Below are positions 5,801-22,826 of a DNA stretch of 58,470 nucleotides, in pieces. Made by a program: the position numbers and the translations under genes. The stretch lies in the IMG/VR virus record IMGVR_UViG_3300042397_002506, positions 1 through 58,470 of that record; one strand, written 5' to 3'. Position 1 is the stretch's first letter. Every line of letters begins with the position of its first letter. This DNA is from a virus. Lineage: Duplodnaviria > Caudoviricetes. The notes below the pieces were generated by a model. The model saw nothing but the letters and a program-made list of their open reading frames with translations. It was not told where the DNA came from and did no database searches.

Positions 5801-8800
5801 AGCTTCCCGTTAGTAATGCAACCAAACGGCGGTAACGTTGGTGTTGGTACACTTACAGCCGGAGCAACTCTTACTGTTAATAAGAAAACTGCGCAAGGAA
5901 ATAACCCATTTGCGGCAGGTACTTCATTATTCAGTTTAGGTGACGTTGACGTAGTTGATTACAGTATTAGAACAGACTCGTTTGGTAATATCTTCCACGT
6001 TAATGATAACGGCGGAAATCAAATTTGGTACACTTCAAGTGCTGGCGGTTTATTTGCAATTTTAAATACCGGTGATGTTGTTGTTAATAACGATTCAACT
6101 ACATACGCAGTAACAGACGCAGCTACAAACTTTATTGCTACCGGAACTGCATCAAATAATAAATTGCACGTCACAGGCAGTATTTCGATGGGATCTATAA
6201 ATGATGTCATTAGTATTTACGGTGCAGACGGTGCTAATACAGCAATCACTTCAGCCACATTCCTTGGTGTTAATGAATTAGGATTTAGTGGCGGTGGCGG
6301 TTTCTACATGAACGATACTGCTACAGTTAGAGTTCGTGGTAATAAAGCCATCTCTACAACTGGTGATATTACTGGTGCCAGATTCATTGATGCAGGTAAC
6401 AACACTTACATCGTAGATCCAGCTGGTACTTCAGTAATGAACCGTATCGATATTGACGATTACATTCGTCATAACGGTGATACTGATAACTACTTTGGCT
6501 TTGCAGCTAACGATACTTTCAGAGTATTTACTGGTAACGCACAACGCCTAAACATTGATAACGATTCAGCAGATTTTACTGTTAACGTTTATGCACCAAT
6601 CTTCTATGATAGCGATAACAATGCTTATTATGGCGATTTCGGTGGAACATCAAACATGTCTCGTATTGATGTTGATGATTATATCCGTCATAGAGGCAAC
6701 ACTGATGCTTACTTCGGTTGGGCTGGAAATAACAACTTTAAGTTATTTACAAACGGCACTGAGCGCTTTAACATAGACGCAGACTCTGCTGATTTTGCAA
6801 TTAACGTTTACGCTCCAAGATATTACGATAGTAATGACTCTACTTATTATGTAGATCCAGCTTCAGTATCAATAATGAACAATGTTTCATTTGGTGTTCC
6901 TGGTAATGGTTCAAACGTAAAAGGTCGTTTCTTATCTATTGAAGGCGACACTGACGCTAGTGGCGAAGGTTCAAGTCGTATCTTCTTTGCAGAACATAAT
7001 TCAACAACTGCAGATCAAGATAAGTACGGTATGGCTCTTGCATATCGTGGCGGTAATGCAGCTATCAATAGTGTTACAGGCCAGCCAACTACATTAACTG
7101 GACTAGGCAACGGCGAATGGGGTCTCCTTGGTTATGATAATAGTATAAGCGGCAACTGGGCAATGAGAGGCCCACGTTCATCGGCTTATGTTGAAGCTCG
7201 TGGCGATTTCCGCGCACCTATCTTCTATGATAGCAACAACACCGCATATTACGGTGACTTTGCTTCTACTTCAATAATGAACATTGTTCGTGTTGGCCAA
7301 CTTCAGGTTGATGACGCAACAACATTTATCGATAGCAGAGCGGGTGATTACGGTACTATTCGTGTAGAAGGTACTACTGGTGCAGGTTCATGGGCAGGTT
7401 ACGCTATTCGTGATGACTGGGTCTTCATGTCAAACGGCGCAGCGTCTGCCGGTATTTACAATGACACTGACAATGAGTGGGCATTAGAAGCAGCTCAAAA
7501 CTCTTGGACAAGATTATACGCTAACGGTGTCCATCAGCTTAGTGCTGAAAACGGTTATGGCTTTGCGCCAACTAGTATGCGTTCACCTATCTTCTATGAT
7601 AGTGACGATATTAACTATTTTGCAAACTTTGCGGCTGGTAACGCAAACAACGCAATCAAAGTAAACGGTAGAATCTTTAGAGAAGGTTTTACTGCTGATA
7701 GTGGTTCAACAAACACATTCTTGCTAGCGCAAGATGAAAACCAATTTATTTGGAACACTGCTACAAACTGGGGTATTTTCTGGGCTACTAACACGTCAGC
7801 TGCTTATCGTTACACGCCGTTTGGCGATAACATGATTTCGTTTGTCGGTGCTGGAAATTTAAGAGCAGCTATTGACCTTGATAATGGTGCTGCGTATTTC
7901 CAAGGTGCTGTAACAGCAGCTGATTTTAAAATCAACGGTGGTAACGAAGATCTAGGTATCTTAAAAACATACGGATCCGGTCTTGGCGATACAATGATGT
8001 TTGACGGTACTGAGTACTGGGAAAAACGTGTTATTAAAGTAATGCAAGGCGCTGAAGCAAACGCGACAAATACTACTGCAGAATATGTTAAAAATAACAA
8101 CGGCCCATTTGCTTCTACATATGCATTAAGAACAAATCAATATCGTACTTTTGATTCTGATTATATTCCAGTTGAACCAGGAGAACAAATTTACGGTGAA
8201 ATTGCTGTAAGATATATTTCTGGATCTGGTGGTCTTGTTTATATGGGTGTTCGCCGCTATGATAAAGACAAACTTGCAATTGCTGGCAATGATGGTATTG
8301 AATATTTCGTTGTTGGTGGCAACAACGTAACAGATACTAACTGGCAAACATTCCGCGGTCATACTACAATTCCTAGTTCACATACTCCGTTTAGTGGATC
8401 TGACGGTGGTGCATGTAAGTATGTTCGTGTAATTGTTCTTATGAACTATCCGAACGCAGGTGGTCCTGCTCTTCGTGAATACGGTCCTCCAGTTTTAAAG
8501 CGCGTAAATCACTTAAGCAACCTTGTAACAGATTTTGACTTGAGCGTTGGTGGAAATGCAACTATCACTGGTGACTTAACTGTTGATGATATCACATCTG
8601 ATGTTATCGACGCTAACCTATTTAGAGATAGAAGCAACAACGCTTACTACGTAGATCCATACGGATTTACTAATCTGGGTCGTGACACTGGTACAGTAGT
8701 AGCAATTACAAAAACTGGCGCAAGTACTGACAATACATTAATTGTTACAAACACACGCGGTGATCATTCTTACGGTATTACTGGCGAGTTTAGAGTTGAA

Positions 8801-11800
8801 GGCACTGCTGGTACAGATAGACCATCTATTCTATTCTCATCTGGATATAACTCAAATACTTGGTCTGCAGGTTTTGGATTTACTGATAGTAATTTTAGAA
8901 TTAAATACGATCACGGCCATAGAAACGGTAGTTGGGGTACAACTTCTCTTGAAATAGACAGAAGCAGCAACGTTTGGGCTTATGGCTCTATGCGTTCACC
9001 TATCTTCTATGACAATGATAACACTGGATACTACGGTGACTTTGCATCAACATCTAACTTAAACGCTTTAAATGCTGAAGCTACTACAGTTCGTCATCTT
9101 AACTTTAAAGGTGAAGGCGGCGATAGTGGTGTAGGTACTCGTGCTTACTCTATCTATCAAGAAGCTGGAGCTTGGTCATTCCCATATCCAGATTTAAGAA
9201 TTGCATTCCACACTGGTATTAAGTTTGGAGCAAATTCAGGCTATCAAGGCATGCGTTTTTATGATGATTATACTATGGTCACGCAGGTCATGTCTATCAA
9301 CAATGCTAATGACGCGCTTGGTGCTAATAACGTTTACGTTAATAACAGTTTGCAAGCTGGTAGTTCATTAAGAGCTCCAATCTTCTATGATTCAAATGAC
9401 ACTAATTATTATGGTGACTTTGCATCAACATCTGTTGTTAACGTTCTAAGAGCTAACCAACTACAACTTGATGGTTCTACATATACTATCGATTCTGTGT
9501 CTGATGATTATGGTTCTATTGCAGTAAACGGATATAGAAACGGTTGGGCTGGTTACTCTATTAATAATCAGTGGGTGTTTATGTCAAGTGGTCCAGGTAA
9601 TGCTGGTATCTACAACGATGTTAACAATCAATGGGCTATTTTAGCTGCGCAAACTTCAGATGTTCAAATCTTCTTCAATGGAACATGGGAAGAGCGTTCA
9701 CGTTCTGGATTTATGGAAGCTCGCGGATCTTACCGTGCACCAATCTTCTATGATTCAGATAACACAGCGTATTTAATTGATGGTAACGGCACATCAAGAC
9801 TCTTAAACCTTAACGTTGATAACGTAATTGGTGGTAGCGTTAATGGATATTCTGAATTACTCTTAAGCAGAGATAACAGAACAATTGCGCCAAGTGAAGA
9901 TCCGGCTGCCAGAATGCGTTTTGGTTTTACATCTTGGGCTAACAACGATTCGGCACCATATGCCGATTACTTGCATTTAAGATCTTATACAGATGCGTCT
10001 GGTGGTTCAGATAATCTTATAACATTCCTAAAATCCGGTATTGGAATGCGTATTAGGCAACAAACTTGGGGTTCTGGAACTGCGTATTCTACTGTTAGAA
10101 ACGTTACAATTTATAACGAAAACCCAGGCGCTGGAAATGATTTGTATGCTTCTATCTATTATGATAGCAATGATACTTCATATCGTGTAGATCCTACCGA
10201 TACATCCATTATAAGATATCTAAAAGTTAATACAGCGGGTTCAAGCTCAGGAACTCGTGCGTTAACTATTAAATCTGACGGACAAGCAGAAATTAACTTC
10301 GGGGCTTATCCCGGAAATTGGACATCCGCGCTGCAAATTCAGAATAACAACAATACTGACTTTGTGTGGATTTCTCCTCTTGATGATGGACAAAATGCAA
10401 GATTTAGAACTGGTGGGTCTGGCTTAGATATCTATACAGATGGTGGTTCTGGTGATGCTGGTACTTATTCAGCATTTATTGGTTCTGGATCTGTTCGTTC
10501 ATCAATCTTCTACGATCTAGATAATACGGGGTATTACTTAAATCTAAACGGTTCTTCAAACCATGCTGGTGATTTTAGAACTGATCAGTTTTATGCTCGT
10601 GGTTGGTTCCGCAATGATAACAGCGGCACTGGTCTTTATAACCAAGCTACTGCGATGCATTGGTATTCTGATACAAGTTCACGTTTTAGATTATACAGTA
10701 CCACATCTACATCACAGATTTTGATGGCTACAGCAGGTGATGTTGCACGTGGTTATGTTTATGCTGAAAACGATAATAGCATTGGTTTCCTTAACAACGG
10801 CGGAAGCTGGCGCATGCGAATCGTTAGCGGCGATTGGATAGACGTTGGTGGTTCAAGCATTCGTGCGCCGATATTCTATGACAACCAAGATACAACTTAT
10901 TACGTAGATCCTAACAGCAGTGCTAGAATAGCAACAGTAGGCGTTGGTCTTGCTGCCAACAACGGCGGTAAACTAAGCGTAACTGGCGGACATGGCGATT
11001 CTAATATTAGAGTAACTGCTCAAGGTAACCAATTAGGTTCTGGTGTTACTTCATCTATGCATTGGTGGGTGTCTGAACCCGGCGTTACATGGAACGAAGG
11101 TGGTTTCGGATTTAACGTAACCAACGATGGTGGTACTCCATCTGGCTTTGGACGTCCTAATACGTCTTATGGCCAAGGCTACATGAGATATACTACTGGC
11201 GGCGATATTGTTGTTTATAACACAAACACGTCTGGTACAAGATTCCAAAATATGGAATTCCTTTCAAACGGAACTGTGTATGCAAACAACTATCTAACTG
11301 GCGGCAACAGTCTTCGTGCTCCTATCTTTTACGATAGTCAAGACACTGGGTATTATAGCGATCCAAATGGCGGCAGTAGATTAAACACTACGGAAAATAT
11401 TGGCAGAGTTGGATTTAGTAATTACCTTGTAAGCCGTAATGAAGGCGGCATGATGGGTAGCTACAACGCTACTGGTACTGCAGATAAGGTAATCTGGACT
11501 ATCGGTGAAAGCTGGCCTCTTGGTAACATGTATGGTCTTGCTTATTCTTACGGCGGTTTTGGACCATTTGGAACTCAACATAAGCTTGTACTGAGAGAAA
11601 ACGGCTCTACATCTACACAATTTGGTTTTGGCGGCAATATGTATGTTGCGGGTTCTGGCGCAGCCCAAAACGACTTCCGTGCTCCTATCTTCTATGACTC
11701 AAATGATACTGCGTATTATTTTGATGGTGCAAGCGTAAACTCTACACGATTCGAAGGTGTGAGTAATAGAACAAAAGCAATGATGGGTCTACCAGGTAGA

Positions 11801-13093
11801 ACCGGATTTAGTGCGGAATATTACTCAGCAAGACCTCGTATCACTGGTGATGTAAACTACTGGACCGGCTCAATGGGCTGGGGTACGATCGATATGAACG
11901 ATCTTGCTCACTGGGGTTCTGGTTTCATTGACTCTTGGAGCAACCCTGGTAACCAACCAAGTGGTACATCACATTGGGTAGGTACGCAAGCATGGCACTA
12001 TACTGATAACGGCAATGCTCGTTATGGTTGGCAGCTAGTTGGTGGTCCAATTGGTAACCTTCGTTTCCGTCAATCATGGTCTGGCTTTAATGCATGGCGC
12101 ACAGTTCCAATGCTTGGTGTTAACGACGGTAACGGCGCTGCAATGTATGCTAACATTTATTATGATAGTGATAACACTGGTTACTACTGCGATCCGTCCG
12201 GTTCTTCAAACTTAAACCTAGATTTAACAACTGACCAGTATTACGCTCGCGGTTGGTTTAGAAATAACAACGTAAATACAGGTCTGTACAATCAGGGTAC
12301 TGGCAGCCACTGGTATTCATCAAGCTCGCAATACTGGAATGCAACTGGTAATAATAACGGCGCGGATATGAACATCCGTGGTTTAGCAGCTTATCAGGGT
12401 ACAAGTCGTTTCTGGTTGCACGGTGCAACTGATGGTTACCAAGGATTCTTGAATTCAAACGGTTCTTGGTTGTTCAGAATGTCTCACAACGCTGGCCAAT
12501 CGCCAGGTATTTGGTTCTACGAAGCTGGCGAAAGCTGGACTGGTAACATTGGTGCTGACGTTGGTAAGATTGAATACCACGCAAACCGTTTCTACATCGT
12601 GTCTGGTTCTAACTCAGATCGTATTGTGCAGTTTAGACGTGACGGTAGTGATTTCTCTTATATTGCTAACGATGGTGTATTTGTTGGTACTGCAACTTCA
12701 GCTCGTTGGGCCGACTTAGCAGAACGTTATGAAGCAGACGCTATCTATGAAGCAGGTACAGTATTAGCTATTGGTGGAGATAAAGAAGTTACTCTTTATC
12801 AACCTGGTATGCCACTTGCTGGAGCAATATCAGTTAAGCCTGCTTATCGTATGAATGATGAGAATTACGGAAACGATAATTCTATCGAATCTAAGATGAA
12901 TCCGTTTGTCGCTCTTAAGGGTCGTATTCCAGTTCTAATTAATGGTTCTGCTAAAAAGGGACAGTGGATTATTGCTGATAAAGACGGAAGAGGTAGAGCT
13001 GTAGATTACGGTACATCCGGTATAAATACGTTTGACATTATTGGTATCGCTATTGGTGATAGTAACGGCGGTGAGGTAGAAGTTAAAATATAA
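2813..13093 (+). CDS. Giant modular tail fibre/adhesin (3,426 aa) with a C-terminal autocleaving-chaperone-like domain
   Basis: ATG at 2813 follows a GGGGAGAG SD. About 21 copies of (R/Y)APIFYDSxxxxYYxD and 7 of H(N/R)G(D/N)xxx.F. C-terminal ARWADLAERY...GTVL...VALKGRIPV resembles peptidase G2/intramolecular-chaperone domains. Confidence 0.85.
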   Translation: MANNKKFIVKNGLESQENVVIGTTTDDGVNKLQVTGSSKLTGAVEVTQSTAATPTVKFTNSAGPSALIAEFAGTSQSVRITNFSAGDYSILNTGQSNGIRLFNDTAGLDILYNGNTDLVFNSTGIDFKRAPTYLGNVFWNAGNDGANSGLDADLIDGLDSSQFLRSDESDTMNGSLIITGNLTVQGTTTTLSTETILLADNIITLNSNYTGSTPSENAGIEVERGTLANSTFQWLEASDKWELGGPSLGLILGDTSNRQGAITSYANSFIIEAGGASGVSSGTVLLSGRLFGTAANAGVAAFHNPTTNISYGELLYNGSPRIRSESVGVTALGNSTVQGTLTVGTGSGGAYIYLDGAGTNGTIYSSAGEIGFLNASLNYALKVDTAGDVRVTDNIYAQKFIDINNNTYQVVPSVTSVLNNIDLEGSLRHNGDTDTFITFPTTGRIGFTLDGTQYGLMTNTAFQYTGDVIADRFLDRSDNAYYVDPANSSVLNTVGIDSDLFHNGDTDTKLSFATDSITLSTANVVRLTANTTALTSSLDVYAPRYYDSNNNAFYLDPASTSELNSANFYSASANNAINVGINAAQRFNIDVTSSQGYIRYIQNEIDATDHSVNFEIISGSGGLNRFNFNKNIDVGSNTITGGFGVFTSGAYASVFYDYDNEAFFADLNNTGNSINIAGTVQAGNGTLALPSYTFGSDTNTGMYRAGVDTIGFSAGGNDEFRILTTYTLSPGSSRAPIFYDSDNTAYYGDFASTSVMNRVGIDDYIQHNGNITSYFGFSANNIFKLFTNGAERLNIDDNSADFSVDVYAPRYYDSNTITYYGDFAATSVMNRIDIDDYIRHNGNTTSYFGFSANNIYKLFTNGVERLNVDDDSADFAVNVYAPQYYTNDYLIHNGDTNTYVGFDANDQFGVWTNGVKQIAVNTTAVAINLNTNITGALDVTGRATIGNSLTRPDSLAVLANSAARIGGADVHLHVASLGAAANYAVALQSGRQSDNVSFPLVMQPNGGNVGVGTLTAGATLTVNKKTAQGNNPFAAGTSLFSLGDVDVVDYSIRTDSFGNIFHVNDNGGNQIWYTSSAGGLFAILNTGDVVVNNDSTTYAVTDAATNFIATGTASNNKLHVTGSISMGSINDVISIYGADGANTAITSATFLGVNELGFSGGGGFYMNDTATVRVRGNKAISTTGDITGARFIDAGNNTYIVDPAGTSVMNRIDIDDYIRHNGDTDNYFGFAANDTFRVFTGNAQRLNIDNDSADFTVNVYAPIFYDSDNNAYYGDFGGTSNMSRIDVDDYIRHRGNTDAYFGWAGNNNFKLFTNGTERFNIDADSADFAINVYAPRYYDSNDSTYYVDPASVSIMNNVSFGVPGNGSNVKGRFLSIEGDTDASGEGSSRIFFAEHNSTTADQDKYGMALAYRGGNAAINSVTGQPTTLTGLGNGEWGLLGYDNSISGNWAMRGPRSSAYVEARGDFRAPIFYDSNNTAYYGDFASTSIMNIVRVGQLQVDDATTFIDSRAGDYGTIRVEGTTGAGSWAGYAIRDDWVFMSNGAASAGIYNDTDNEWALEAAQNSWTRLYANGVHQLSAENGYGFAPTSMRSPIFYDSDDINYFANFAAGNANNAIKVNGRIFREGFTADSGSTNTFLLAQDENQFIWNTATNWGIFWATNTSAAYRYTPFGDNMISFVGAGNLRAAIDLDNGAAYFQGAVTAADFKINGGNEDLGILKTYGSGLGDTMMFDGTEYWEKRVIKVMQGAEANATNTTAEYVKNNNGPFASTYALRTNQYRTFDSDYIPVEPGEQIYGEIAVRYISGSGGLVYMGVRRYDKDKLAIAGNDGIEYFVVGGNNVTDTNWQTFRGHTTIPSSHTPFSGSDGGACKYVRVIVLMNYPNAGGPALREYGPPVLKRVNHLSNLVTDFDLSVGGNATITGDLTVDDITSDVIDANLFRDRSNNAYYVDPYGFTNLGRDTGTVVAITKTGASTDNTLIVTNTRGDHSYGITGEFRVEGTAGTDRPSILFSSGYNSNTWSAGFGFTDSNFRIKYDHGHRNGSWGTTSLEIDRSSNVWAYGSMRSPIFYDNDNTGYYGDFASTSNLNALNAEATTVRHLNFKGEGGDSGVGTRAYSIYQEAGAWSFPYPDLRIAFHTGIKFGANSGYQGMRFYDDYTMVTQVMSINNANDALGANNVYVNNSLQAGSSLRAPIFYDSNDTNYYGDFASTSVVNVLRANQLQLDGSTYTIDSVSDDYGSIAVNGYRNGWAGYSINNQWVFMSSGPGNAGIYNDVNNQWAILAAQTSDVQIFFNGTWEERSRSGFMEARGSYRAPIFYDSDNTAYLIDGNGTSRLLNLNVDNVIGGSVNGYSELLLSRDNRTIAPSEDPAARMRFGFTSWANNDSAPYADYLHLRSYTDASGGSDNLITFLKSGIGMRIRQQTWGSGTAYSTVRNVTIYNENPGAGNDLYASIYYDSNDTSYRVDPTDTSIIRYLKVNTAGSSSGTRALTIKSDGQAEINFGAYPGNWTSALQIQNNNNTDFVWISPLDDGQNARFRTGGSGLDIYTDGGSGDAGTYSAFIGSGSVRSSIFYDLDNTGYYLNLNGSSNHAGDFRTDQFYARGWFRNDNSGTGLYNQATAMHWYSDTSSRFRLYSTTSTSQILMATAGDVARGYVYAENDNSIGFLNNGGSWRMRIVSGDWIDVGGSSIRAPIFYDNQDTTYYVDPNSSARIATVGVGLAANNGGKLSVTGGHGDSNIRVTAQGNQLGSGVTSSMHWWVSEPGVTWNEGGFGFNVTNDGGTPSGFGRPNTSYGQGYMRYTTGGDIVVYNTNTSGTRFQNMEFLSNGTVYANNYLTGGNSLRAPIFYDSQDTGYYSDPNGGSRLNTTENIGRVGFSNYLVSRNEGGMMGSYNATGTADKVIWTIGESWPLGNMYGLAYSYGGFGPFGTQHKLVLRENGSTSTQFGFGGNMYVAGSGAAQNDFRAPIFYDSNDTAYYFDGASVNSTRFEGVSNRTKAMMGLPGRTGFSAEYYSARPRITGDVNYWTGSMGWGTIDMNDLAHWGSGFIDSWSNPGNQPSGTSHWVGTQAWHYTDNGNARYGWQLVGGPIGNLRFRQSWSGFNAWRTVPMLGVNDGNGAAMYANIYYDSDNTGYYCDPSGSSNLNLDLTTDQYYARGWFRNNNVNTGLYNQGTGSHWYSSSSQYWNATGNNNGADMNIRGLAAYQGTSRFWLHGATDGYQGFLNSNGSWLFRMSHNAGQSPGIWFYEAGESWTGNIGADVGKIEYHANRFYIVSGSNSDRIVQFRRDGSDFSYIANDGVFVGTATSARWADLAERYEADAIYEAGTVLAIGGDKEVTLYQPGMPLAGAISVKPAYRMNDENYGNDNSIESKMNPFVALKGRIPVLINGSAKKGQWIIADKDGRGRAVDYGTSGINTFDIIGIAIGDSNGGEVEVKI
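13021..13028 (+). promoter_or_regulatory. Candidate late promoter inside the 3' end of the fibre gene, upstream of the enzyme island
   Basis: Exact TATAAATA about 80 nt upstream of the 13108 start. Confidence 0.55.
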
Positions 13094-13107: not shown

Positions 13108-13545
13108 TTGATTAGATTATGCAAGTTACTACCATTGCTTAAGCAAGAAATTATTAGCTATGACAGATATGAGTCCGGGGAACTAAAAGTAATAGGATAC
13201 CCCGGACTTCTTAATTCTGATATATCAGTTAGAGATAAGATGAGTTATTCGCAATGGCTAGAATCGTATCAAACATATCCAATAATTAAAGTAGAAGGAC
13301 TTGAAAGAGTTATCACTAGCTTTAAATCTGTACATCTATTTTACAATCAAAAGTCTCGTTATAGTTTTAAATGGCACACAGACCCAGTAGACGTTCAACT
13401 GTACGTTCTTAAGGGTACAAAGTTTCTGCAAGTAAGAGACAAGAATTACAAATTAGTAGCAGGACAATCTGCTAGAATTCCTAAGAATTATCTCCATAAA
13501 GCATACAGTATTGCTGATACTTGGGCATTGAGTACAGTATCTTGA
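13108..13545 (+). CDS. JmjC/cupin-type 2OG-Fe(II) oxygenase
   Basis: WHTD (HxD)...GTK...IPKNYLH iron triad and cupin layout. TTG start with AGGA SD. Confidence 0.75.
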   Translation: MIRLCKLLPLLKQEIISYDRYESGELKVIGYPGLLNSDISVRDKMSYSQWLESYQTYPIIKVEGLERVITSFKSVHLFYNQKSRYSFKWHTDPVDVQLYVLKGTKFLQVRDKNYKLVAGQSARIPKNYLHKAYSIADTWALSTVS

Positions 13546-14300
13546 TGCAGCATATTTTTAATCCACCTGCTATAATTGCGAATGCTCCTGCTTTTAAAGA
13601 AGCACCGGCAATTCAAAAAGAACGTATTGAATTTGAAGATAAACTAAAAAGACAAATGTTTTTTGGTTCTATATCTAAAAGAGAAGCAGACGGAAGAACA
13701 TATAATTATATTGATAAAAACGGCGAGTATGTTTCTAGCTTTTTAAGTCCGTATAATGCAAACATTCTTGATAATGTAGAGCCAGAAATAAAAAATTTAA
13801 TATCGGCTTTAATAAGCAAAGGTTATTTAACAGCCGGATCTTGTCAAGGACATACCGTTGGTAAAGAAAAAAGTTTAACACGATGGGTAATGATTTCTTT
13901 TATTAGTTTGGAAGAACAAAATCGATTTATTAGTCAAATTAATAGCTTTAAATTGCCGGTGTTTTGGTATTTTAATTTTTTAAACACTGTTGAGAATCCT
14001 AAAACAGAAGAAACTAGAGACGGTAAGTCGCTATCTATAAATTTTAAAGATGTCCAGCATAAATCAACAGATGAAGCAAAACACAATAAATACACTAATA
14101 AAGACCTAGCAGATTATTGGAACATTATGTTTGCTAGGAAGTACGCAGAATATTATCCTGTAATGATGTGTATTTGCTCTTGTCCTGGCGATATATCAGT
14201 TTTAGAAAAAATTAAAACATTTATGTTTTGGCCTTTTCGAAATTACTACACTACCAAACTGACAGCTAAAATAAAGAGTATTAATAATTATGAATGGTGA
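13545..14300 (+). CDS. Hypothetical protein (L..KGY.T.GSCQGH motif)
   Basis: ATG at 13545 overlaps the upstream stop (TGATG); 251 aa; family not assignable. Confidence 0.7.
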   Translation: MQHIFNPPAIIANAPAFKEAPAIQKERIEFEDKLKRQMFFGSISKREADGRTYNYIDKNGEYVSSFLSPYNANILDNVEPEIKNLISALISKGYLTAGSCQGHTVGKEKSLTRWVMISFISLEEQNRFISQINSFKLPVFWYFNFLNTVENPKTEETRDGKSLSINFKDVQHKSTDEAKHNKYTNKDLADYWNIMFARKYAEYYPVMMCICSCPGDISVLEKIKTFMFWPFRNYYTTKLTAKIKSINNYEW

Positions 14301-14303
14301 AAT

Positions 14304-15362
14304 GTGAAAGATATTTTAATATATTTAAAAACAACCGAAACTTGTAATCTTAATTGCATGCATTGCTTTACTAGTGGAAGTAAAGGTGCAAAAATTTATT
14401 GGGATTATAAAAAGGTAGCAGATTGGTTGCATCGATTATCAGTCGAGATTCCGCAAACAAGTCATACTCATTTAGAGTTTCATGGCGGCGAACCGTTCTT
14501 AGCTGACCTTGAAACTATGCAATACGTATACGATGATTGCAAAGACTTGTGGACAAGCCAAAGTTGGGGTATTACAACTAACTTAACATTTAAATTAACA
14601 CAAGATAAAATAGATTTTATTCAAGGGCCGTTAGGCGGACACATTGGTACAAGCTGGGATCCTGATATTAGATTTTCCAGTCCTAAACAATATGATCTCT
14701 GGCGTAAAAACGTAGAAACATTAATTGACTTAGGCGTAACTATAAAATTGTTTGTTAGTGTAACAAAAGGCACAATAGCTATAGAGCCTATTGATTTACT
14801 AGAATGGGTTCGAGACTTAGGAGTCAAAGAATTAGCACTAGAGCGTTTAACAATGAATGGTAGTGCTAGAAATAATTTGCATATATTCCCTACTAACACA
14901 GAACAAGACAGTTGGTTCTTAAAAATGCATGAACAAAGCAAAAAAGCAGGCGCTCGAGATTGGTTTGATAATGAATTTTTCGAAAACGTATATGCTAAAT
15001 TTGAATCTGGAATGACAAAAGGTGGCACATTTTGTAGAGACTGTGAAGAGAAACTATTTACAGTTAATGCAGATGGATCTATTTCTGGATGTCCAAATAG
15101 TGCGCCAGAACATTCTTTTGGACATATTAATGATGATATACCACAATTATTGTACAGTCCAAAGCGAATAGAAAACATTGCTTGCGAAAGAAGCAGAGAT
15201 CCGAGATGTTATGAATGCCCAGTTTTTCAATATTGCGGCGGTGATTGTCATCAATTAGAATGGCAAGATGATGTTTGCGGAGCTCCAAAGAGTTTGATGC
15301 GCGAGTTAGCTGGAATAAATAGAATAAATACTAATAAAGTATTCTTAATAAAGGAATTATAA
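14304..15362 (+). CDS. Radical SAM/SPASM protein 1 (peptide/protein maturase-like)
   Basis: CNLNCMHC (CX3CX2C), FHGGEP, SPASM-type CRDC...GCPN...CYECPVFQYCGGDC...C. Confidence 0.92.
   Translation: MKDILIYLKTTETCNLNCMHCFTSGSKGAKIYWDYKKVADWLHRLSVEIPQTSHTHLEFHGGEPFLADLETMQYVYDDCKDLWTSQSWGITTNLTFKLTQDKIDFIQGPLGGHIGTSWDPDIRFSSPKQYDLWRKNVETLIDLGVTIKLFVSVTKGTIAIEPIDLLEWVRDLGVKELALERLTMNGSARNNLHIFPTNTEQDSWFLKMHEQSKKAGARDWFDNEFFENVYAKFESGMTKGGTFCRDCEEKLFTVNADGSISGCPNSAPEHSFGHINDDIPQLLYSPKRIENIACERSRDPRCYECPVFQYCGGDCHQLEWQDDVCGAPKSLMRELAGINRINTNKVFLIKEL
15314..15330 (+). promoter_or_regulatory. Tandem late-promoter variants (AATAAATA x2) upstream of the Cys-His-tailed gene
   Basis: AATAAATA at 15314 and 15323. 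The same variant precedes gp19 (39367) and the 28415 gene (28385). AAGGA SD follows. Confidence 0.45.
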
Positions 15363-15363: not shown

Positions 15364-15936
15364 ATGGCAGGCGGTTTAACCGATAATATTAATGCGCAGA
15401 ACGTTGTAAATAGATTTGCTGATTACGTTCGCGGAGCAGCAAATCAAGGTATTTCATGGGGAACTAACTCCTATCCTTTTGGAGAGTTTAGTGCTATTGC
15501 GTTTGTATTTGGTGGAGACACTAATGGCAAACCCATCGAAATTAGTGGTGGAAACATTAATAGCAACCCTATTACTGCTCAAACAGTATATCAAGTATTA
15601 ATTGACGAAACCACAAGATATACACGTGTTAGATTAATGCGAGCATTGCTGTTTGTCGATGGCGCCGGCGGAAATACTGGAACCCGACCAAATCCTGGAT
15701 ACGTATATGACGGCACCGCAGTAGCACATCTTAACAGTAATTACCAAGTTGGAGTTAGTGCTGGTAGAAATAACGTGTTTGCCGGAAACGTTATGACTAG
15801 AGGCGGTACCGCCGATATGTTTAACAATATGCGTGCAGCTTATAACAACATTCGTGGGCAGGCTGTAACATTTCAAGTCAACGTTTGCCATGCTAGTTGC
15901 CATAGCAATTGCCACAACTCTAGATCGAGAAGATAA
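15364..15936 (+). CDS. Gly/Asn-rich protein with C-terminal CHASCHSNCHNSRSRR; putative modification substrate/virion protein
   Basis: All 3 Cys lie in a period-4 CHxx repeat at the C-terminus. Composition resembles the fibre genes. Directly follows rSAM/SPASM 1. The function is inferred. Confidence 0.6.
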   Translation: MAGGLTDNINAQNVVNRFADYVRGAANQGISWGTNSYPFGEFSAIAFVFGGDTNGKPIEISGGNINSNPITAQTVYQVLIDETTRYTRVRLMRALLFVDGAGGNTGTRPNPGYVYDGTAVAHLNSNYQVGVSAGRNNVFAGNVMTRGGTADMFNNMRAAYNNIRGQAVTFQVNVCHASCHSNCHNSRSRR

Positions 15937-16655
15937 TGAACTTTATTAAAACAACCGCACCTATTTCAATCGACAATTTAAAAAAATATTTTGTTGATAA
16001 AGACACATTTTTTCTTATTGACTACAAAAATTCTGCTTTAAATGGTAGCAAACTATTAACATATCTCAGCAATCTAGATGTGCCAGCAGACATAGATTTT
16101 ACTGGATGTTCTGATGATGAATTTTTTGAAATGACAAAAGAATATTTAAATTCGCAAACTATTTGTAACATTGCATTTTTAGAAAAAGCTGTAATAACTA
16201 TTTTAAAAGAAAAAAACGGATTATCAAATACTGAATTCTTTAAAGATTTCATATCTAAAAATTCAGTAATATTAGATGAATGGTTATCTAAAATTTATAG
16301 CTTGTCGTTATTTAATATGTATGCGATAGATGCGCCAGAGTACAAAAAATTTGTAACTGATCATCCATTAGATACTACTGATTCATTAGTTGGCATTAAT
16401 TTTGTTAGCTTATTAAAGCATGAAGAATTATATGACTTGTATCAGACAGTCGAAACAAGCAAAATGAAATATTACAAAACATATTTTGACGAATACATGT
16501 TTAAAGGTAAAAACTTGTATTCGTATTGGGCTAACGAAAACAATCCAATGTTTTTATTAACTTTTAATATAGCAGAGGGAACTATTACAGGTGATGAGTA
16601 TTTTGCGAATATAAAAGAAACAATTAAGGAGATAGAAAATGCTACACCTGTTTAA
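15936..16655 (+). CDS. Hypothetical protein of the radical SAM island
   Basis: 239-aa ORF coupled to the upstream stop (TAATG). Confidence 0.75.
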   Translation: MNFIKTTAPISIDNLKKYFVDKDTFFLIDYKNSALNGSKLLTYLSNLDVPADIDFTGCSDDEFFEMTKEYLNSQTICNIAFLEKAVITILKEKNGLSNTEFFKDFISKNSVILDEWLSKIYSLSLFNMYAIDAPEYKKFVTDHPLDTTDSLVGINFVSLLKHEELYDLYQTVETSKMKYYKTYFDEYMFKGKNLYSYWANENNPMFLLTFNIAEGTITGDEYFANIKETIKEIENATPV

Positions 16656-17682
16656 CAAAGTTTATATTGTTAGTGATTCATTAGTAAATATAAACTTTGA
16701 TAGAGTAGTTATTTCTCAGCAATATGGTAAGCAAATGCTTGAGACATTAGATAAGATTGCGTACGGAGATCTTATAGCCTACGGTGCTAATATTAATGAA
16801 GTGTTAGCAGATTCTAGCTTTCCTGAGTTTATTCAATTAATTAAAAACAAAGCTGCAGTATCCGACAAAAAGATTATAATATACGCAGATGACGCAAGCT
16901 TTTCTAAGTTTGTAGCAATGTGGTTTAAATCTATTTTTAAAAATATTTCATTAGAATCTGCTTGGCTAATATTGTCTTCGTATATTGAAAAAGAAAAGCT
17001 AATGAGAGGTTCTAGAACAAACTTATATACCGCTAATGTTGCAGATGTTTTTCCATTATTAACCGAAGAACAATTTACCAGCGATTTTACTGATGCAATA
17101 TCTCATGATTTAATTGACATTACTTCAAGTATTAGCTTTGAGATATTGCTAGCAAATTACATTAATAATAATACTTATAAAGAAGAATTAAAAAGTTCAA
17201 TAATTACTATTTTAAAAAGAGCTTTGGAAGAATTAGCTATTGAAGTAAAGTATTCGTATGTAAAGAATTTTAAAAATACTCAATATCCAATAATTGCTGA
17301 TGCCAAAAACTTCTTTACCAATTCCAGCATTTATACTGGATTGAATTTAGGCCGAGTTAGTAGCCAACATAACACAACAAATTTAACCAGTGCTACAACT
17401 GAAGATATTGCTAAGTTTAAAACTGTAGCTAATTTAATCATGTTAAACTGGGAACAATTCCAACAACAGTCAACAATTTTTTCTTTAATACAGTTTCTTG
17501 ATGTAATTAGACAAACAGAAATTACAGATGCAAACTTAGAATCGATTATCAATTTTGAAAAAAATGCTTTAGGTACAATGAGAATATATTCTTCAGCAGA
17601 CGAAGAAAAAATTAACATTTATTTTCTTAGACATGTGTTGTCTGCTGCGCCTAGTGATTTAGAAGAATATGAACTTAAATGA
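16639..17682 (+). CDS. Hypothetical protein of the radical SAM island
   Basis: 347-aa ORF with AAGGAG SD, overlapping both neighbours. Confidence 0.75.
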   Translation: MLHLFNKVYIVSDSLVNINFDRVVISQQYGKQMLETLDKIAYGDLIAYGANINEVLADSSFPEFIQLIKNKAAVSDKKIIIYADDASFSKFVAMWFKSIFKNISLESAWLILSSYIEKEKLMRGSRTNLYTANVADVFPLLTEEQFTSDFTDAISHDLIDITSSISFEILLANYINNNTYKEELKSSIITILKRALEELAIEVKYSYVKNFKNTQYPIIADAKNFFTNSSIYTGLNLGRVSSQHNTTNLTSATTEDIAKFKTVANLIMLNWEQFQQQSTIFSLIQFLDVIRQTEITDANLESIINFEKNALGTMRIYSSADEEKINIYFLRHVLSAAPSDLEEYELK

Positions 17683-18298
17683 TCAATATTATGATCGTGG
17701 TTTTTTTGCAGTAGAGTTAGACGGACTAACTAAAAGTCTTTTGTGGAATGAAATTACTACTACTAATTGGGTGCCAGATACAGTAGATGGTATTTACAAA
17801 CAAATACCAGATTGGTACAAAAGTAATGTTAACTTAAAGAATATTACTGGAGCAAATCGAGCCGATTGCGAGCGAATTATTGGTGATCATATTATGAAGC
17901 TTGCTCCAGAATCTCTATTAAATGTTGGTAATATTTTAGTAGATACTGAACCATTTCAGTTGTTTAAAAAATACTTTAAACGACATGAGTTAAAATTTGT
18001 AGATATGTGGAATGGTAGCGAAGAAATACCATATCATTTTGACACTATTAACGGGTGCGATACATTAGTACTAATATATTTAACAGATCAACACGTCTGG
18101 GATCCAAAATGGGGTGGTGCTATTTCTATGAAAAAAGAAGTAGATAATTTTGTTATATTTGAACAAGAAATATTACCTAACAATGGTACTATGCTAGTAA
18201 TTAATAATGCTAATCCGTTAGTTTATCACAAAGTTACAGCACTCAAAAATACTAACATAAATAGATATACATTTTCTTTTAATTATAATTGGTTTTAA
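17669..18298 (+). CDS. 2OG-Fe(II) oxygenase (prolyl-hydroxylase-like)
   Basis: YHFD...W...WGG...HKV...RYTF: HxD...H triad plus the 2OG-binding Arg. Confidence 0.85.
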   Translation: MNLNDQYYDRGFFAVELDGLTKSLLWNEITTTNWVPDTVDGIYKQIPDWYKSNVNLKNITGANRADCERIIGDHIMKLAPESLLNVGNILVDTEPFQLFKKYFKRHELKFVDMWNGSEEIPYHFDTINGCDTLVLIYLTDQHVWDPKWGGAISMKKEVDNFVIFEQEILPNNGTMLVINNANPLVYHKVTALKNTNINRYTFSFNYNWF

Positions 18299-18299: not shown

Positions 18300-19313
18300 A
18301 TGATTGCTTCGCAGCTAATTGACATGCATAATAAGCGCCCTACGACTGGCGAAATAATTGTTACGCTGTTTGAACTCTGTAATTTGTCGTGTTTATTTTG
18401 CCCACAAGACCATGCTAGTATCGAAGGCATTGATACAATCGTAAGTAAGATAGATCAAATTAAAAGTGTAATTGATACTCTGCGCAAAAAAGGAAAAAAA
18501 GACTTTTCAATTCATCTTATGGGCGGAGAATTGTTTTCTGATGAGCTAGATGATTCTGTATTTAGAGATTACAAAACTCTTATAGACTCAATAAATACTT
18601 ATTGTATTGAACAAAACGTGCCAGTAAATATTTCAGTTGTAAGTAATTTAGTATGGCAAAAGAAAGATAGAGTTAAACGGTTTTTAGCTGATACTGATGT
18701 TAGCATTATGACTAGTTATGATCCTTCTGGCAGATTCGATAAACACTCTTTAGAAATATTTAAAGAAAATGTTGTAGAATTTAAAGATCATATTGTAACG
18801 GTAAACGTCATTATAACAAAACCTACAATAGATAAGTTTTTAAAAAATCAAATACCATTCTTTGATTATTTGTACGAAAATTTTAATGTTTATTTTGATC
18901 AATACGGACCTGAAAAAAATCAAAAGTTTTTAATGGCGACTGATTTGCAGGTCCGTGACTTTATGATTTACTTAGTAGATCACTGGCCAAACGTAATGCC
19001 AGTTACAGATTACTTTTCAAAAACAAAAAGTCAAATGACATGCATGGATACATATACAGTGATGCCTGCTGGTAAATGGGGTGGGTGTGGTCAATTCGAA
19101 GAAATAGATAAAGTAATACCAATTAAACTAGTCACTGAGCAATCGTGGCTAGATGGATATAACTGCTTAGAATGTGAGCATTTTAATAGATGCTCTCTTG
19201 GTTGTTTTATGAGCAACCATGTAAGAGATATGCGAACCCAAAAAGAATGTTGGCTAAAAGAAGTTTATGATTATGTTGACAATAAGATAACGACTGATGA
19301 GGATTCAAAATGA
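18300..19313 (+). CDS. Radical SAM protein 2 with C-terminal Cys-rich (SPASM-like) domain
   Basis: CNLSCLFC, MGGELF, C-terminal CLECEHFNRCSLGC...C. Confidence 0.88.
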   Translation: MIASQLIDMHNKRPTTGEIIVTLFELCNLSCLFCPQDHASIEGIDTIVSKIDQIKSVIDTLRKKGKKDFSIHLMGGELFSDELDDSVFRDYKTLIDSINTYCIEQNVPVNISVVSNLVWQKKDRVKRFLADTDVSIMTSYDPSGRFDKHSLEIFKENVVEFKDHIVTVNVIITKPTIDKFLKNQIPFFDYLYENFNVYFDQYGPEKNQKFLMATDLQVRDFMIYLVDHWPNVMPVTDYFSKTKSQMTCMDTYTVMPAGKWGGCGQFEEIDKVIPIKLVTEQSWLDGYNCLECEHFNRCSLGCFMSNHVRDMRTQKECWLKEVYDYVDNKITTDEDSK

Positions 19314-20410
19314 TTTTAACATTAATAGAACAAAACAAAGACTTTATTGCTGAGGAAGCAATCAGCTATATTAGAAAGAAATATCCCAGTTTTAAATACG
19401 ACTACGAACTTCTAAGAAGAGATATTCATATGATAGCTGATATTTTTATGGGTGAGCTTGAATTAGAAGGTGGTGTGTATTTTTTAGATACTAGAGACGG
19501 AGTTGATTTGTCTAATGCACAAATGAACAGATATAAAAGATCTTTTACAGTATTTCGAAATCACAATATTGAAACCATTGAATGTATTGAATATGTATCA
19601 ATGTTAATTGAAAAAATATATAACAATGAAGTTATTGAAAATACGTACAATACTAAATTTCCGCAAATAAAAAATTCTAGCATACCTCAACAAGAAAATA
19701 AAACAATAAACTTCCAAGAAATTACTGGTTTGATTGTTGCTAACTCTGCAGCAGGCGCAACAAGGAACTATCACATTGAATTTATAGAAGAATACTTTGA
19801 TAAAGGATTTGTAGTTACAAAAATTCCACCTCAAATTTATGAAAAGCTTTGGGAACAAGTTCGTACAACAAACTGGATAGATGCTAAAAAGTCAACTTAT
19901 AAAAAAGTGCCAGACTGGTATCACGAAAATGAAAAACATTATGTTGATCCAACTGGATATGACAGACCCAGTTATGAAAGAAAAATTGGAGCAGACATGT
20001 TTACTAATGCTCCGCAAAGTCTTATCGATATTTCAGATGAATTGATTAAAGATCCTTTGTTTGATCCTTTAAAGATGTACCGCCCGCCTAATCCGGTAAC
20101 TAAGTATTTGCACTTTTGGAATGGAAGTGAAAACTCTCCGCACCATGTCGATGCTATTGATGGATCTGATCTAATGATTTTCTGTTATTTAACAGATGAA
20201 ACGGATTGGAAAGAAGAATGGGGTGGATATATTAACATCATGAAAGAAGTTAATTCGGAAATAACTAATACAAAAACAGTGTTGCCAAACGATGGTGTTA
20301 TGGTCCTTGTCAATAATTCAGCTCCTATTTTTAAACATGGAATTAGAAACTTGGTAAAACGAGATGTAAACAGATACACATTCATTTTCCACTATACTTG
20401 GACCTTCTAA
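19310..20410 (+). CDS. 2OG-Fe(II) oxygenase with N-terminal helical extension (paralog of 17669)
   Basis: HHVD...WKEEWGG...HGI...RYTF; the C-terminal ~210 aa align by eye with the 17669 product. Confidence 0.85.
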   Translation: MILTLIEQNKDFIAEEAISYIRKKYPSFKYDYELLRRDIHMIADIFMGELELEGGVYFLDTRDGVDLSNAQMNRYKRSFTVFRNHNIETIECIEYVSMLIEKIYNNEVIENTYNTKFPQIKNSSIPQQENKTINFQEITGLIVANSAAGATRNYHIEFIEEYFDKGFVVTKIPPQIYEKLWEQVRTTNWIDAKKSTYKKVPDWYHENEKHYVDPTGYDRPSYERKIGADMFTNAPQSLIDISDELIKDPLFDPLKMYRPPNPVTKYLHFWNGSENSPHHVDAIDGSDLMIFCYLTDETDWKEEWGGYINIMKEVNSEITNTKTVLPNDGVMVLVNNSAPIFKHGIRNLVKRDVNRYTFIFHYTWTF

Positions 20411-20428: not shown

Positions 20429-21499
20429 ATGGAATTGATAATTAAACCAACTGAACGATGCAATTTTAAATGTACATTTTGCTCTTCAACTCGTATTACA
20501 GAAGATAAAACTGACGAGTTGTCGCATGATACTATATTTGAATTTTTAGAACGTTTTCCAGAAACAAACACTATAATTGTTAACGGTGGCGATCCGTTAA
20601 TGATGTGTCCTGGATACTACTGGAAAATTATCGAGTATCTTGATGAAAAAGAAATGCCTACTACTATCAGTTTTACTAGTAACTTGTGGCCGTTCTATAA
20701 AAATCCTAACAAATGGAAAGAATTATTTAATCATCCGAGATTAGGTATTACCACAAGTTTCCAATACGGCGGTGGTAGACTCAAAGGCGATTTGTCGGAG
20801 TTTAGTGAAGAAGATTTTTGGGCAGTTAGTGACGCTATGTTAGAGCATGTTGGATATAGACCAGACTTTATTAGCGTAATTACTAAAGAAAATGAACATT
20901 TGGCTATTAAGAATGTTGAATTAGCAAAGCGAATGGGAGTTGAATGCAAACTAAACTATGCATTTAGTAGTGGTCCACCTGTAAAATTTAAAAACATTAC
21001 TATGGGGCAAGAAGGTCAACCTTATATGCTAGCTGACATATATGAAATTTATGTTAAAGTTTGGCAGTTAGGTTTGACTGAATGGGAATATAATACAAAG
21101 CAAATGGTAAAACGTTTAAAGGGACATAGCACCACTTGCCCACAAAGTAGAAATTGTGATTCTAATATTAGAACTTTACAGCCAAGCGGAGACTACTACA
21201 GTTGTGGTTCGTTTGGAGATGATAGACAATATGCTATAGACTTTAAAAAAGAAATGGCTGGAGAAAAAATATATCCACTCAGATTTCAGCTAGAATTGCA
21301 AAATTTAAAAGAAAGTTGCTACACGTGTCCAATGTTTCAAATTTGTAATGGTTGCAAAAAGACTATCAAAGATTTAAAGGTTCACGGATTAGTAGAAAAA
21401 CATTGTGCTAAAATGAAAACGCTAGCTCCGTTAATAATCGAATCAAACAATATGACTGGTATGATGGAAATAACACCGTATTTAAACGAAAATGTCTAA
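20429..21499 (+). CDS. Radical SAM/SPASM protein 3
   Basis: CNFKCTFC, NGGDP, CPQSRNC...YSCG...CYTCPMFQICNGC...HC. Confidence 0.9.
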   Translation: MELIIKPTERCNFKCTFCSSTRITEDKTDELSHDTIFEFLERFPETNTIIVNGGDPLMMCPGYYWKIIEYLDEKEMPTTISFTSNLWPFYKNPNKWKELFNHPRLGITTSFQYGGGRLKGDLSEFSEEDFWAVSDAMLEHVGYRPDFISVITKENEHLAIKNVELAKRMGVECKLNYAFSSGPPVKFKNITMGQEGQPYMLADIYEIYVKVWQLGLTEWEYNTKQMVKRLKGHSTTCPQSRNCDSNIRTLQPSGDYYSCGSFGDDRQYAIDFKKEMAGEKIYPLRFQLELQNLKESCYTCPMFQICNGCKKTIKDLKVHGLVEKHCAKMKTLAPLIIESNNMTGMMEITPYLNENV

Positions 21500-21505: not shown

Positions 21506-22414
21506 ATGAACATTAGCGTTAACCCTACATACTACTGCAATTTTAGATGCGATTTTTGTTATTTAACACCAGAACAATTATCCGATCGAGCTCTATTATC
21601 ACTTGATTCACTATCAGAAAAATTAGCAGAAATTATATCTCACACTAATATAGATATGGTAGACATATATGGTGGAGAAATTGGACTGCTGTCAGAATCT
21701 TATTGGAATAACTTAATTTCAATACTTTATTCTTATGGTATAGATGATATAAATTTAATAACAAACTTATCAATGTTAAATGTCGTAACAGAAGATGATA
21801 GAGTACACACTTCTGTCAGTTATGATTTTGAGGCAAGAGAATCATCCGATAAAGTATGGAGAAATATGGCATTGTTAAACAAACCATTTTCTGTTTTGAT
21901 GCTAGCGTCGCCATCACTTATTAAGCAAGACGTTGACTATATGGTTAACATGTTTAATACATTAGGTAATTTAATATCGGTGGAAATTAAACCGTACAGC
22001 GCAAATCAAGCCAATCAATTACAAGTTTCTTATACAGAGTATGAAGAGTTTGTTAAAAAATGGATTGAAAATAAAAATAAAAAGTTTCAACTAAACAATA
22101 TACACCTGTTAAATTCAGTAGTAGATGCAAGTCGCAATAGTTTTTCAGATGATCACGTATATATAACACCATCTGGCAACTACGGTGTACTAGAGTTTGA
22201 TCTAAACGAAAATGAATTTTTTAAAGAATACAAAACATTTAAAGAATATCTCCAATGGTGTAATTTAGAAAAGGTTAGAGTATCAAATAATAAATTTTGT
22301 TCAAAATGTGACTACTATGGCAAATGTCTTTCAGAGCATTTACGTGATGTAAAGAATGTAAAAAACAGCTGTAATGGATTTGTAAACCTTATTAAATGGT
22401 ATGAAGATAAATAA
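21506..22414 (+). CDS. Radical SAM protein 4 with reduced auxiliary Cys motif
   Basis: CNFRCDFC, YGGEI, C-terminal CSKCDYYGKCLSEH...SC. Confidence 0.85.
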   Translation: MNISVNPTYYCNFRCDFCYLTPEQLSDRALLSLDSLSEKLAEIISHTNIDMVDIYGGEIGLLSESYWNNLISILYSYGIDDINLITNLSMLNVVTEDDRVHTSVSYDFEARESSDKVWRNMALLNKPFSVLMLASPSLIKQDVDYMVNMFNTLGNLISVEIKPYSANQANQLQVSYTEYEEFVKKWIENKNKKFQLNNIHLLNSVVDASRNSFSDDHVYITPSGNYGVLEFDLNENEFFKEYKTFKEYLQWCNLEKVRVSNNKFCSKCDYYGKCLSEHLRDVKNVKNSCNGFVNLIKWYEDK

Positions 22415-22826
22415 TATGGAAGAATGGAAAATTAGACAAGAAATTTATCATCGAATAAACACTGAGTATTCTGATGATCTCAAAAAATTTAATATTGAAC
22501 TAACTAATGATATTGTAGGCGATGCTATAAGATACTTCTATGACAGAAATATTGGGTGGGTTTATCCATCTAAGTCATATATGGTTGCTATATGTTATGC
22601 TCGATGGCTAGAACACTATTTTGGTGGCGATGTATATGACTATCTTAATGATCCGGAATTACTGCATGGAAACGACCCTTATTTTGTAGAATATAGTAAA
22701 GACCCTAAAACATATCACAAAATATTAGCAGTTGTTACATGGGAATTTAATGAAAATTCAGGATTAGTACCTGATGTGAAAGAATACTTTTTGAAGGAAT
22801 TTTTAATTGATGAACCCGGGATTTAA
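22401..22826 (+). CDS. Hypothetical protein of the radical SAM island
   Basis: 141-aa aromatic-rich ORF overlapping both neighbours. Confidence 0.7.
   Translation: MKINNMEEWKIRQEIYHRINTEYSDDLKKFNIELTNDIVGDAIRYFYDRNIGWVYPSKSYMVAICYARWLEHYFGGDVYDYLNDPELLHGNDPYFVEYSKDPKTYHKILAVVTWEFNENSGLVPDVKEYFLKEFLIDEPGI

Follow-up and report, generated by a model that had tools for sequence, protein, structure and literature searches.

We analysed the whole 58,470-nucleotide (nt) stretch of IMG/VR record IMGVR_UViG_3300042397_002506 (hereafter the window), which is part of a T4-like myovirus with 37% G+C, and describe here a gene within it whose product ends in a tail of Cys and His residues. This tail-bearing protein, which we call CHtail, has 190 amino acids (aa), is encoded at 15364..15936 on the + strand and consists of a folded alpha/beta body and a 16-residue C-terminal tail. 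The tail, residues 175-190 (15886..15933, + strand), carries the motif C-H-A-S C-H-S-N C-H-N-S R-S-R-R. Translation of the window gives VCHASCHSNCHNSRSRR as the C-terminus of the 190-aa product, followed by a TAA stop at 15934-15936. Cys is found in CHtail only at residues 175, 179 and 183, and His only at 122, 176, 180 and 184. An earlier, sequence-only reading of this DNA had placed all three Cys and three of the four His in a period-4 repeat that runs into RSRR, and had located it at 15886-15936; translation confirms the repeat, and the coordinates are exact, with the codon for C175 starting at 15886. For the composition of CHtail, the chance of three Cys at i, i+4 and i+8 with three of the four His directly after them is approximately 6e-10. 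The pattern CH..CH occurs only once in the six-frame translation of the whole window, and the structural proteins nearby contain little Cys (two residues in one of 3429 aa).

The body of CHtail was modelled by AlphaFold2 as an alpha/beta domain (mean pLDDT 83). Residues 177-183 were modelled as a helix with low confidence, an arrangement in which the three Cys would share one face. CHtail matched no family in Pfam or NCBIfam, its model has no fold match in the PDB and the protein atlas gave no usable match; against the PHROGs, a weak match to phrog_35144 was found. Immediately upstream on the + strand lies the gene for a 352-aa radical S-adenosylmethionine (SAM) enzyme, rSAM1 (14304..15362), recognised by its CX3CX2C motif and by a SPASM domain (TIGR04085, 37.9 bits, cut-off 27). 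The tail gene starts 1 nt past the stop of rSAM1, and the start of the following gene, p239, overlaps the stop of the tail gene by 1 nt.

A word-index search found 254 homologues of CHtail. Among the 120 matches listed, 119 end in the strict motif C-H-x-x-C-H-x-x-C-H-x-x-R-x-R-R, the exception carrying Asn where the first His would be. When 1.84 billion representatives of 50% identity clusters were searched with a profile, 521 were returned at E <= 0.001, the best 150 of which were inspected. The strict motif stands at the C-terminus of 137 of these 150 representatives, each of which is at most 50% identical to the others. The other 13 are ten recognisable variants (with an extra Gly before R-x-R-R, loss of the middle Cys, replacement of the last His by Tyr, a repeat of two or four units, or an extended C-terminus) and three fragments or tail-less sequences. 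In the 137 strict representatives, the fourth residue of the three units is Ser in 128, 110 and 122 respectively and otherwise mostly Asn or Ala, and most have Gly at the second Arg-flanked position. For the 117 representatives with a length of 150-240 aa, identity was approximately 80% in the tails and 28% in the bodies. All 61 tail-gene open reading frames (ORFs) collected from 57 IMG/VR loci, the window and two isolates also carry the strict motif. The sequence-only reading had hung on whether the motif is conserved in homologues, and in each of these samples it is near-invariant. Moreover, the tail is carried by at least three types of body, of about 190 aa, of about 127 aa (tandem forms) and of 250-300 aa.

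The tail was compared in 51 distinct DNA versions. Both AGY and TCN codons specify the invariant Ser at -13, both AGR and CGN the Arg, TGT and TGC the Cys, and CAT and CAC the His. Because Ser and Arg draw on both of their codon families, it is the peptide, not the nucleotide sequence, that is under selection. An element at the level of DNA or RNA was considered and rejected, as synonymous codons vary freely.

Several further features of the protein were observed. Residues 100-112 of CHtail (window 15661-15699) form an invariant Gly-rich loop, G-x-G-G-N-x-G-x-R-P-x-x-G, in a block with a pLDDT of 55. The loop often ends in P-G, the kind of site used by prolyl hydroxylases, and does not occur in the short tandem forms; it might serve as a further site of modification or binding. 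In BFVD, the predicted structures of A0A8S5USJ7, A0A8S5USV2 and A0A8S5USJ8 of myovirus ctijX18 (504-660 aa) match the body of CHtail and are larger paralogues. In some phages a Gly_rich_2 domain (PF21722) is joined to the tail protein (loci L054-L058 and protein P0155). At L054, a 308-aa ORF with the N-terminal helix of the family and Gly_rich_2 (9043-9969) is followed by a 140-aa tail-bearing ORF (9989-10411), and the 453-aa P0155 is a fusion of the Gly_rich_2-bearing and tail-bearing ORFs.

The 57 IMG/VR loci are those found with the CHtail protein profile. An rSAM1 orthologue lies upstream on the same strand in 56 of them and abuts the tail gene in 51. A converse scan of IMG/VR with rSAM1 gave 342 stretches. 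In the best 80 of these, which were examined, a tail ORF came next downstream in 74 and 2.2 kb further on in one, four had too little flank and one could not be called; no stretch with enough flank was without a tail ORF, and all 75 assessable stretches have the tail gene. The same is seen in a collection of isolated phages, where the tail protein and rSAM1 are found in the same 15 records. These are jumbo phages, namely Ralstonia and Burkholderia phiKZ-like phages of the RSF1/RSL2/FLC group, Agrobacterium phage Atu_ph07, Sinorhizobium phage Phosso and Pseudomonas phage pPa_SNUABM_DT01. Four isolate loci were read directly. All four have the order cupin, radical SAM gene, tail gene, and their tails are ICHTSCHTSCHSARGRR, FCHSSCHASCHNSRSRR, VCHSSCHSSCHGSRGRR and YCHTSCHASCHSSRSRR. 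The pairing of the tail gene with rSAM1 is obligate at the level of the genome. Among 185,579 prokaryote species genomes, one locus only was found, on a contig of a metagenome-assembled genome, and a megablast search of window positions 13000-22500 against isolated phages gave no match. One 151-kb phage (G003, the record that contains locus L140) has two full rSAM1 orthologues, at 29116-30126 and 58763-59764, approximately 30 kb apart, and may carry two cassettes.

A scan of IMG/VR with the back-translated tail alone returned at least 119 stretches, from which 80 loci were examined. A strict-motif ORF was found in 79, the remaining one being cut by the end of the locus. The arrangement seen in the window, a single gene with rSAM1 directly upstream, was found in 49 loci, and a second layout, a tandem pair of tail genes directly after a fibre-type gene, in 15. 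The rest were two tandem pairs after rSAM1, five loci with too little flank and eight other arrangements. The tandem genes encode proteins of 124-140 aa that differ in the body and share the tail. The two members of a pair are distinct and each is conserved, which suggests a hetero-oligomer. The hidden Markov model of CHtail includes the tail itself, and the scores of the short tandem forms (41-65 bits) rest largely on it. In genomes where the two kinds of gene are apart, the tail genes accompany the fibre-type gene and the radical SAM genes are elsewhere. Tandem pairs were seen in L064, L128 (8037-8794, - strand), L130, L135, L140 and others.

The CX3CX2C motif of rSAM1 lies at residues 14-21, with C14, C18 and C21 invariant, and eight further Cys (244, 247, 263, 302, 305, 311, 315 and 325) are also invariant. 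As the radical SAM motif begins at residue 14, the enzyme has no N-terminal leader-recognition domain, and Pfam and NCBIfam scans found no RRE family in the cassette. This, together with the well-folded alpha/beta model of the body, fits the proposal of the sequence-only reading that the body is a folded carrier and not a cleaved leader. The best families for rSAM1 are PapB (56.1 bits), DynA (46), TIGR04133 (41) and anSME (40.9), for which the cut-offs are 340-450. Its best PDB relatives by sequence are 8vpo, anSME and 5wgg, a radical SAM domain protein that we take to be CteB. All of these nearest families and structures are peptide- or protein-modifying. The complex of rSAM1, three 4Fe-4S clusters, SAM and the tail protein was predicted with an ipSAE of 0.00 in both runs, a result that counts neither way.

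Further genes surround this pair, all on the + strand. Upstream, a cupin with conserved H90-x-D92...H130 (13108..13545), probably an Fe(II) oxygenase, precedes rSAM1 in 50 of the 57 loci. It is followed by a 259-aa protein of no family (13521..14300), which is found at this position in the window only and elsewhere in a few other cassettes. Downstream of the tail gene, p239 (15936..16655; phrog_20767) has no assigned function and is present in 54 of the 57 loci (54 having at least 900 nt of flank). The following p347 (16639..17682; weak match to phrog_36207), also with no assigned function, is present in 49. The model of p239 has no match in the PDB, its profile has no match among PDB sequences and the protein atlas gave only scores below 0.9 for it; the profile of p347 has four matches among PDB sequences, with E values of 0.078-1. 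Next come a 209-aa protein resembling 2-oxoglutarate (2OG)-Fe(II) oxygenases (17669..18298; Pfam match below the cut-off), the radical SAM protein rSAM2 with a 7-Cys SPASM pattern (18300..19313; 52 of the 57 loci) and a 366-aa protein with a C-terminal 2OG-Fe(II) oxygenase-like domain (19310..20410). These are followed by the radical SAM/SPASM-like rSAM3 (20429..21499; 45 of the 57 loci) and by rSAM4 (21506..22414), a radical SAM protein with four conserved, twitch-like C-terminal Cys, found in 41 of the 57 loci (43 having at least 9 kb of flank). The last two genes encode p141 (22401..22826; phrog_20737), with no assigned function, and a 2OG-Fe(II) oxygenase (22807..23379; phrog_81). The four radical SAM proteins all have matches to phrog_1802. 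Beyond the radical SAM triad, seven Cys are conserved in rSAM2, nine in rSAM3 and four in rSAM4. PADLOC returned only generic radical SAM core matches to pVip. The interval between rSAM2 and rSAM3 is variable. In many cassettes it holds a B12-binding radical SAM protein of 497-599 aa (28 ORFs, one of them at 13521-15251 of L005), which is absent from the window, and extra 2OG oxygenases of 155-213 aa occupy the same slot.

Directly upstream of the cassette lies the gene for a giant repeat-rich protein of 3429 aa with only two Cys and no Pfam family (2804..13093, + strand). It is a putative fibre, so named from its position and from the fibre-type PHROGs of the preceding gene. In 44 of the 57 loci, a conserved counterpart of its C-terminal 500 aa or so lies immediately before the cassette. 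The protein contains many copies of a unit like R-A-P-I-F-Y-D-S-x-D-x-x-Y-Y-G-D-F-A-S-T-S, and its last 100 or so residues alone match a PHROG, of unknown function. At 13021..13028 (+ strand), 87 nt before the start of the cupin, is a T4-type late-promoter-like site, TATAAATA, which we take to be the T4 late-promoter consensus. The window has ten copies, nine of them on the + strand, a number that is not above chance (shuffle mean 7.66; 23 of 100 shuffles reach ten), although where they lie is informative. The + strand copies, at 2757, 13021, 23375, 23389, 27303, 37372, 43627, 44360 and 45380, lie 30-90 nt before structural genes; they precede the giant gene, the cupin, the gene after the cassette and the sheath, protease, scaffold and capsid genes, with a further copy at 27303. 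The copy at 23375 overlaps the stop of the last cassette gene, and there is no copy inside 13108-23374. Because a site stands before the cassette and none within it, the cassette looks, by inference, like one late transcription unit. In two freshwater metatranscriptome runs, short contigs fall on parts of the cassette, one of them on the 5′ part of the tail gene, for which DNA carry-over is possible. The bin that includes the tail itself (15803-16169) has no metatranscriptome cover, and we base nothing on these runs.

The structural genes recognised in the window are those for the sheath stabiliser, large terminase, sheath, portal, prohead protease, scaffold and major capsid protein, the last sharing 69% identity with its counterpart in Sinorhizobium phage phiN3. 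When words from 13000-17700 were sampled, eighteen DNA runs from lake water contained at least 99% of them, and the record may derive from some of these runs. A 1335-aa protein encoded at 31142-35149, after the sheath stabiliser and before the terminase, starts with an Mtd_N domain (the N-terminal domain of the major tropism determinant; 27.3 bits, cut-off 26.3) and is possibly a second receptor-binding protein. Just after the cassette are a 345-aa protein with 17 His, six Cys and no family (24200-25237) and a 262-aa protein matching a heptose phosphate kinase/adenylyltransferase PHROG (26451-27239).

Literature searches returned no paper that describes the tail or gives the cassette a role. 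The jumbo-phage papers only list cupin, radical SAM and 2OG genes (PMC8066314, PMC11898562, PMC5468394), and the term 'radical SAM' is absent from PMC7824862. The cassette was therefore compared with known systems. It shares the enzyme motifs and gene co-conservation of the general kind of SPASM maturase with a cognate substrate, and lacks the leader peptide or RRE of that kind. Among the closest is the HXS anti-phage system, in which the radical SAM enzymes HxsB and HxsC act with HxsD to mature a whole protein, HxsA. HxsA has tandem His-x-Ser units rich in basic residues, and a radical-SAM-dependent covalent change of +8 Da on an SHRSS unit was reported in 2026 (PMC13128918). The tail described here also holds H-x-S/N in each unit. 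However, the present system is phage-encoded, its units are C-terminal with one Cys each, so spaced that the period is 4 and not the 3 of the His-Xaa-Ser system, and it has four radical SAM enzymes as well as oxygenases. The HxsB model (TIGR03978) scores 34.3 bits against rSAM1 (cut-off 370), and the HxsC model (TIGR03977) 30.3 bits against rSAM3 (cut-off 267.9).

PapB, the best NCBIfam match of rSAM1, is a SPASM radical SAM enzyme of freyrasin-type ranthipeptide maturation that acts on period-4 Cys in CX3D motifs (PMC10739248). The Cys of the tail also have a period of 4. However, the match to NF047865 reaches only 56.1 bits against a cut-off of 340, and the substrate here is a 190-aa folded protein without a leader peptide. 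The Asp/Glu acceptor of a Cys-X3-Asp/Glu motif is also absent: the tail in the window has neither D nor E, and D is found in at most four of the 137 strict representatives at any variable position. A second comparison is with the anaerobic sulfatase-maturating enzyme (anSME), a SPASM enzyme without a leader-recognition domain that oxidises a Cys or Ser of a protein (PMC10288494). It is among the best PDB sequence matches of rSAM1, although its family model, TIGR03942, scores only 40.9 bits against rSAM1 and 43.3 against rSAM3 (cut-off 349.45). The sulfatase motif is C/S-x-P/A-x-R. The last unit of the tail, C-H-x-S-R, has an Arg at +4 as in this motif, and is the only unit to do so. Unlike in the sulfatase motif, its +2 position is never P (G in 62, S in 40, N in 17 and A in 2 of 137), and a Pfam scan found no sulfatase domain.

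The maturases of three-residue cyclophanes (triceptides) use an aromatic-x-x pattern and are likewise SPASM radical SAM enzymes. The sequence-only reading had likened the tail to these systems and to His-Xaa-Ser repeats. The H-x-S/N/A triplets do fit aromatic-x-x, but all enzyme scores lie far below the family cut-offs (XyeB 17.7, YhhB 24.5, AmcB 22.2 and 30.7, GrrM 17.8 bits; cut-offs 310-450). Moreover, every triplet in the tail is preceded by Cys, which cyclophane systems do not require at that position. In quinohemoprotein amine dehydrogenase, the radical SAM/SPASM enzyme QhpD installs Cys thioethers with Asp/Glu acceptors in a small subunit, QhpC, that is retained. QhpD is matched at 30 bits against a cut-off of 453, and its context is not phage. 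Judged by the scores of its enzymes, the cassette falls outside every specific family tested (PapB, anSME, Hxs and cyclophane).

On balance, we lean towards the tail being a retained substrate of the radical SAM enzymes of the cassette. This rests on an invariant C-terminus set on variable carriers, on conserved residues that are not metal ligands, on the one-to-one pairing with a SPASM enzyme and on the apparently late, translationally coupled unit. The conserved target of rSAM1 would be three Cys-His-x-Ser/Asn units, Arg-x-Arg-Arg and the free C-terminus, and a protein substrate would suit rSAM1, as it has no leader-recognition domain. Its three radical SAM paralogues, together with the Fe(II)/2OG oxygenases of the late cassette, would probably also act on the tail. 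The most likely chemistry would be radical abstraction of hydrogen in the tail leading to intrachain crosslinks, plus hydroxylations. The crosslinks might be either thioethers from Cys sulphur to carbon, or bonds from His to C-beta within each H-x-S/N triplet, and the product a compact, basic and possibly metal-binding knot. The Ser, Asn or Ala at the fourth position of each unit are small, bear a hydrogen on C-beta and are not usual metal ligands. The modified tail would remain on its folded carrier and work with the neighbouring fibre-type protein, no small peptide being released. In the tandem layout the tail genes remain beside the fibre gene, as would suit a substrate belonging to the fibre but not a helper of the enzymes. 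There is a precedent in the radical SAM maturation of a whole protein with H-x-S units (PMC13128918).

Several points weigh against this reading. Adjacency is not universal, as 15 of the 80 motif-scan loci have no radical SAM gene in the stored stretch. A search of five of these 15 records in full revealed a strong rSAM1 orthologue elsewhere in four (E <= 1e-137), the fifth being a 22%-complete fragment. Co-occurrence therefore holds at the level of the genome. The sequence-only reading had also turned on whether homologues are common in genomes without radical SAM genes; apart from this one fragment, none was found. Secondly, whereas the motif and its protein-level conservation, the pairing with rSAM1, the cassette and its position and the folded body are shown, the modification of the tail, the assignment of enzymes, the chemistry and the link to the virion are all what we infer. 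Thirdly, because the named radical SAM families score so far below their cut-offs, the reaction cannot be read from homology, and PMC10288494 cautions that similarity to anSME does not predict the reaction. The enzymes of the cassette could act on the giant protein instead. Finally, Cys and His are classic metal ligands, and a metal site without any modification would likewise account for their conservation.

The last point is a serious rival. It holds that the Cys and His of the tail stay unmodified and form a metal or Fe-S site, maybe between the chains of an oligomer as in fibre proteins, and that the enzymes act elsewhere, for example on the giant fibre-type protein. Three Cys and three His do fall within ten residues, the tail is helical in the low-confidence AlphaFold2 model and the cassette adjoins a Cys-poor giant protein that is a possible real substrate. 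Metal sites are also known in T4 fibres, where the iron site consists of HxH repeats in a trimeric fibre. However, CHtail has no HxH, nor did the Pfam and NCBIfam scans find any known metal-site family. Ligands alone do not explain the Ser/Asn/Ala positions and the exact R-x-R-R end, which are as invariant as the Cys and His. The one-to-one pairing with rSAM1, seen whichever of the two genes the search starts from, also weighs against this rival. We therefore consider it unlikely that the tail is only a metal site, although metal binding and the substrate reading are not mutually exclusive.

The tail might instead be the core of a released product, with a protease freeing a small modified peptide or cofactor after maturation. 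Precursors of pyrroloquinoline quinone and mycofactocin are processed in this manner, the product being cut from the precursor after maturation, and an invariant core on a variable carrier is the pattern of cofactor precursors. The many tailoring enzymes, including the B12-binding radical SAM protein in 28 ORFs of other loci, would also suit it. However, the Pfam, NCBIfam and PHROG matches of the cassette include no family of proteases or exporters, although p239 and p347, which have no assigned fold, could hide a protease; the body is well folded and conserved, and the tandem forms lie directly after a fibre gene. Release of a product is thus improbable. It is more improbable still that CHtail is a helper of the radical SAM enzymes, serving as a cluster or electron donor or as a substrate chaperone with an Fe-S cluster on its tail: it abuts rSAM1 in 51 of the 57 loci, and genes for Fe-S assembly are also present in phages rich in radical SAM genes (PMC5332604), but the tandem tail genes sit with the fibre gene at a distance from those for radical SAM enzymes, Pfam and NCBIfam gave no match to a family of Fe-S carriers, and the bodies vary widely where the enzymes are approximately 50% identical across the same phages.

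If the tail is indeed modified, virions can carry enzyme-built crosslinks or cofactors, and the chemistry would be defined on an unusually clear, invariant 16-residue substrate. It would also explain the many so far unexplained radical SAM and 2OG genes of jumbo phages and of T4-like phages from marine and fresh water. Small peptides and a few proteins of bacteria are known to be matured by radical SAM enzymes, and here a large phage cassette has an obligate pairing. The system is spread over hundreds of phage lineages (521 clusters and 342 radical SAM loci in the searches above) and lies in the late structural region. More tentatively, and as a possibility that we would not call likely, a dedicated set of enzymes (a cupin, several 2OG oxygenases, four radical SAM enzymes and in some cases a further one that binds B12) in several unrelated phage lineages (T4-like, phiKZ-like and Atu_ph07-like) may act on a virion protein associated with the fibre. 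At the C-terminus of this protein the set would build a protein-derived, crosslinked knot or cofactor of Cys and His that might bind metal and would act in adsorption or in crossing the cell envelope. If true, this would be the first radical-SAM-matured structural protein of a virus.

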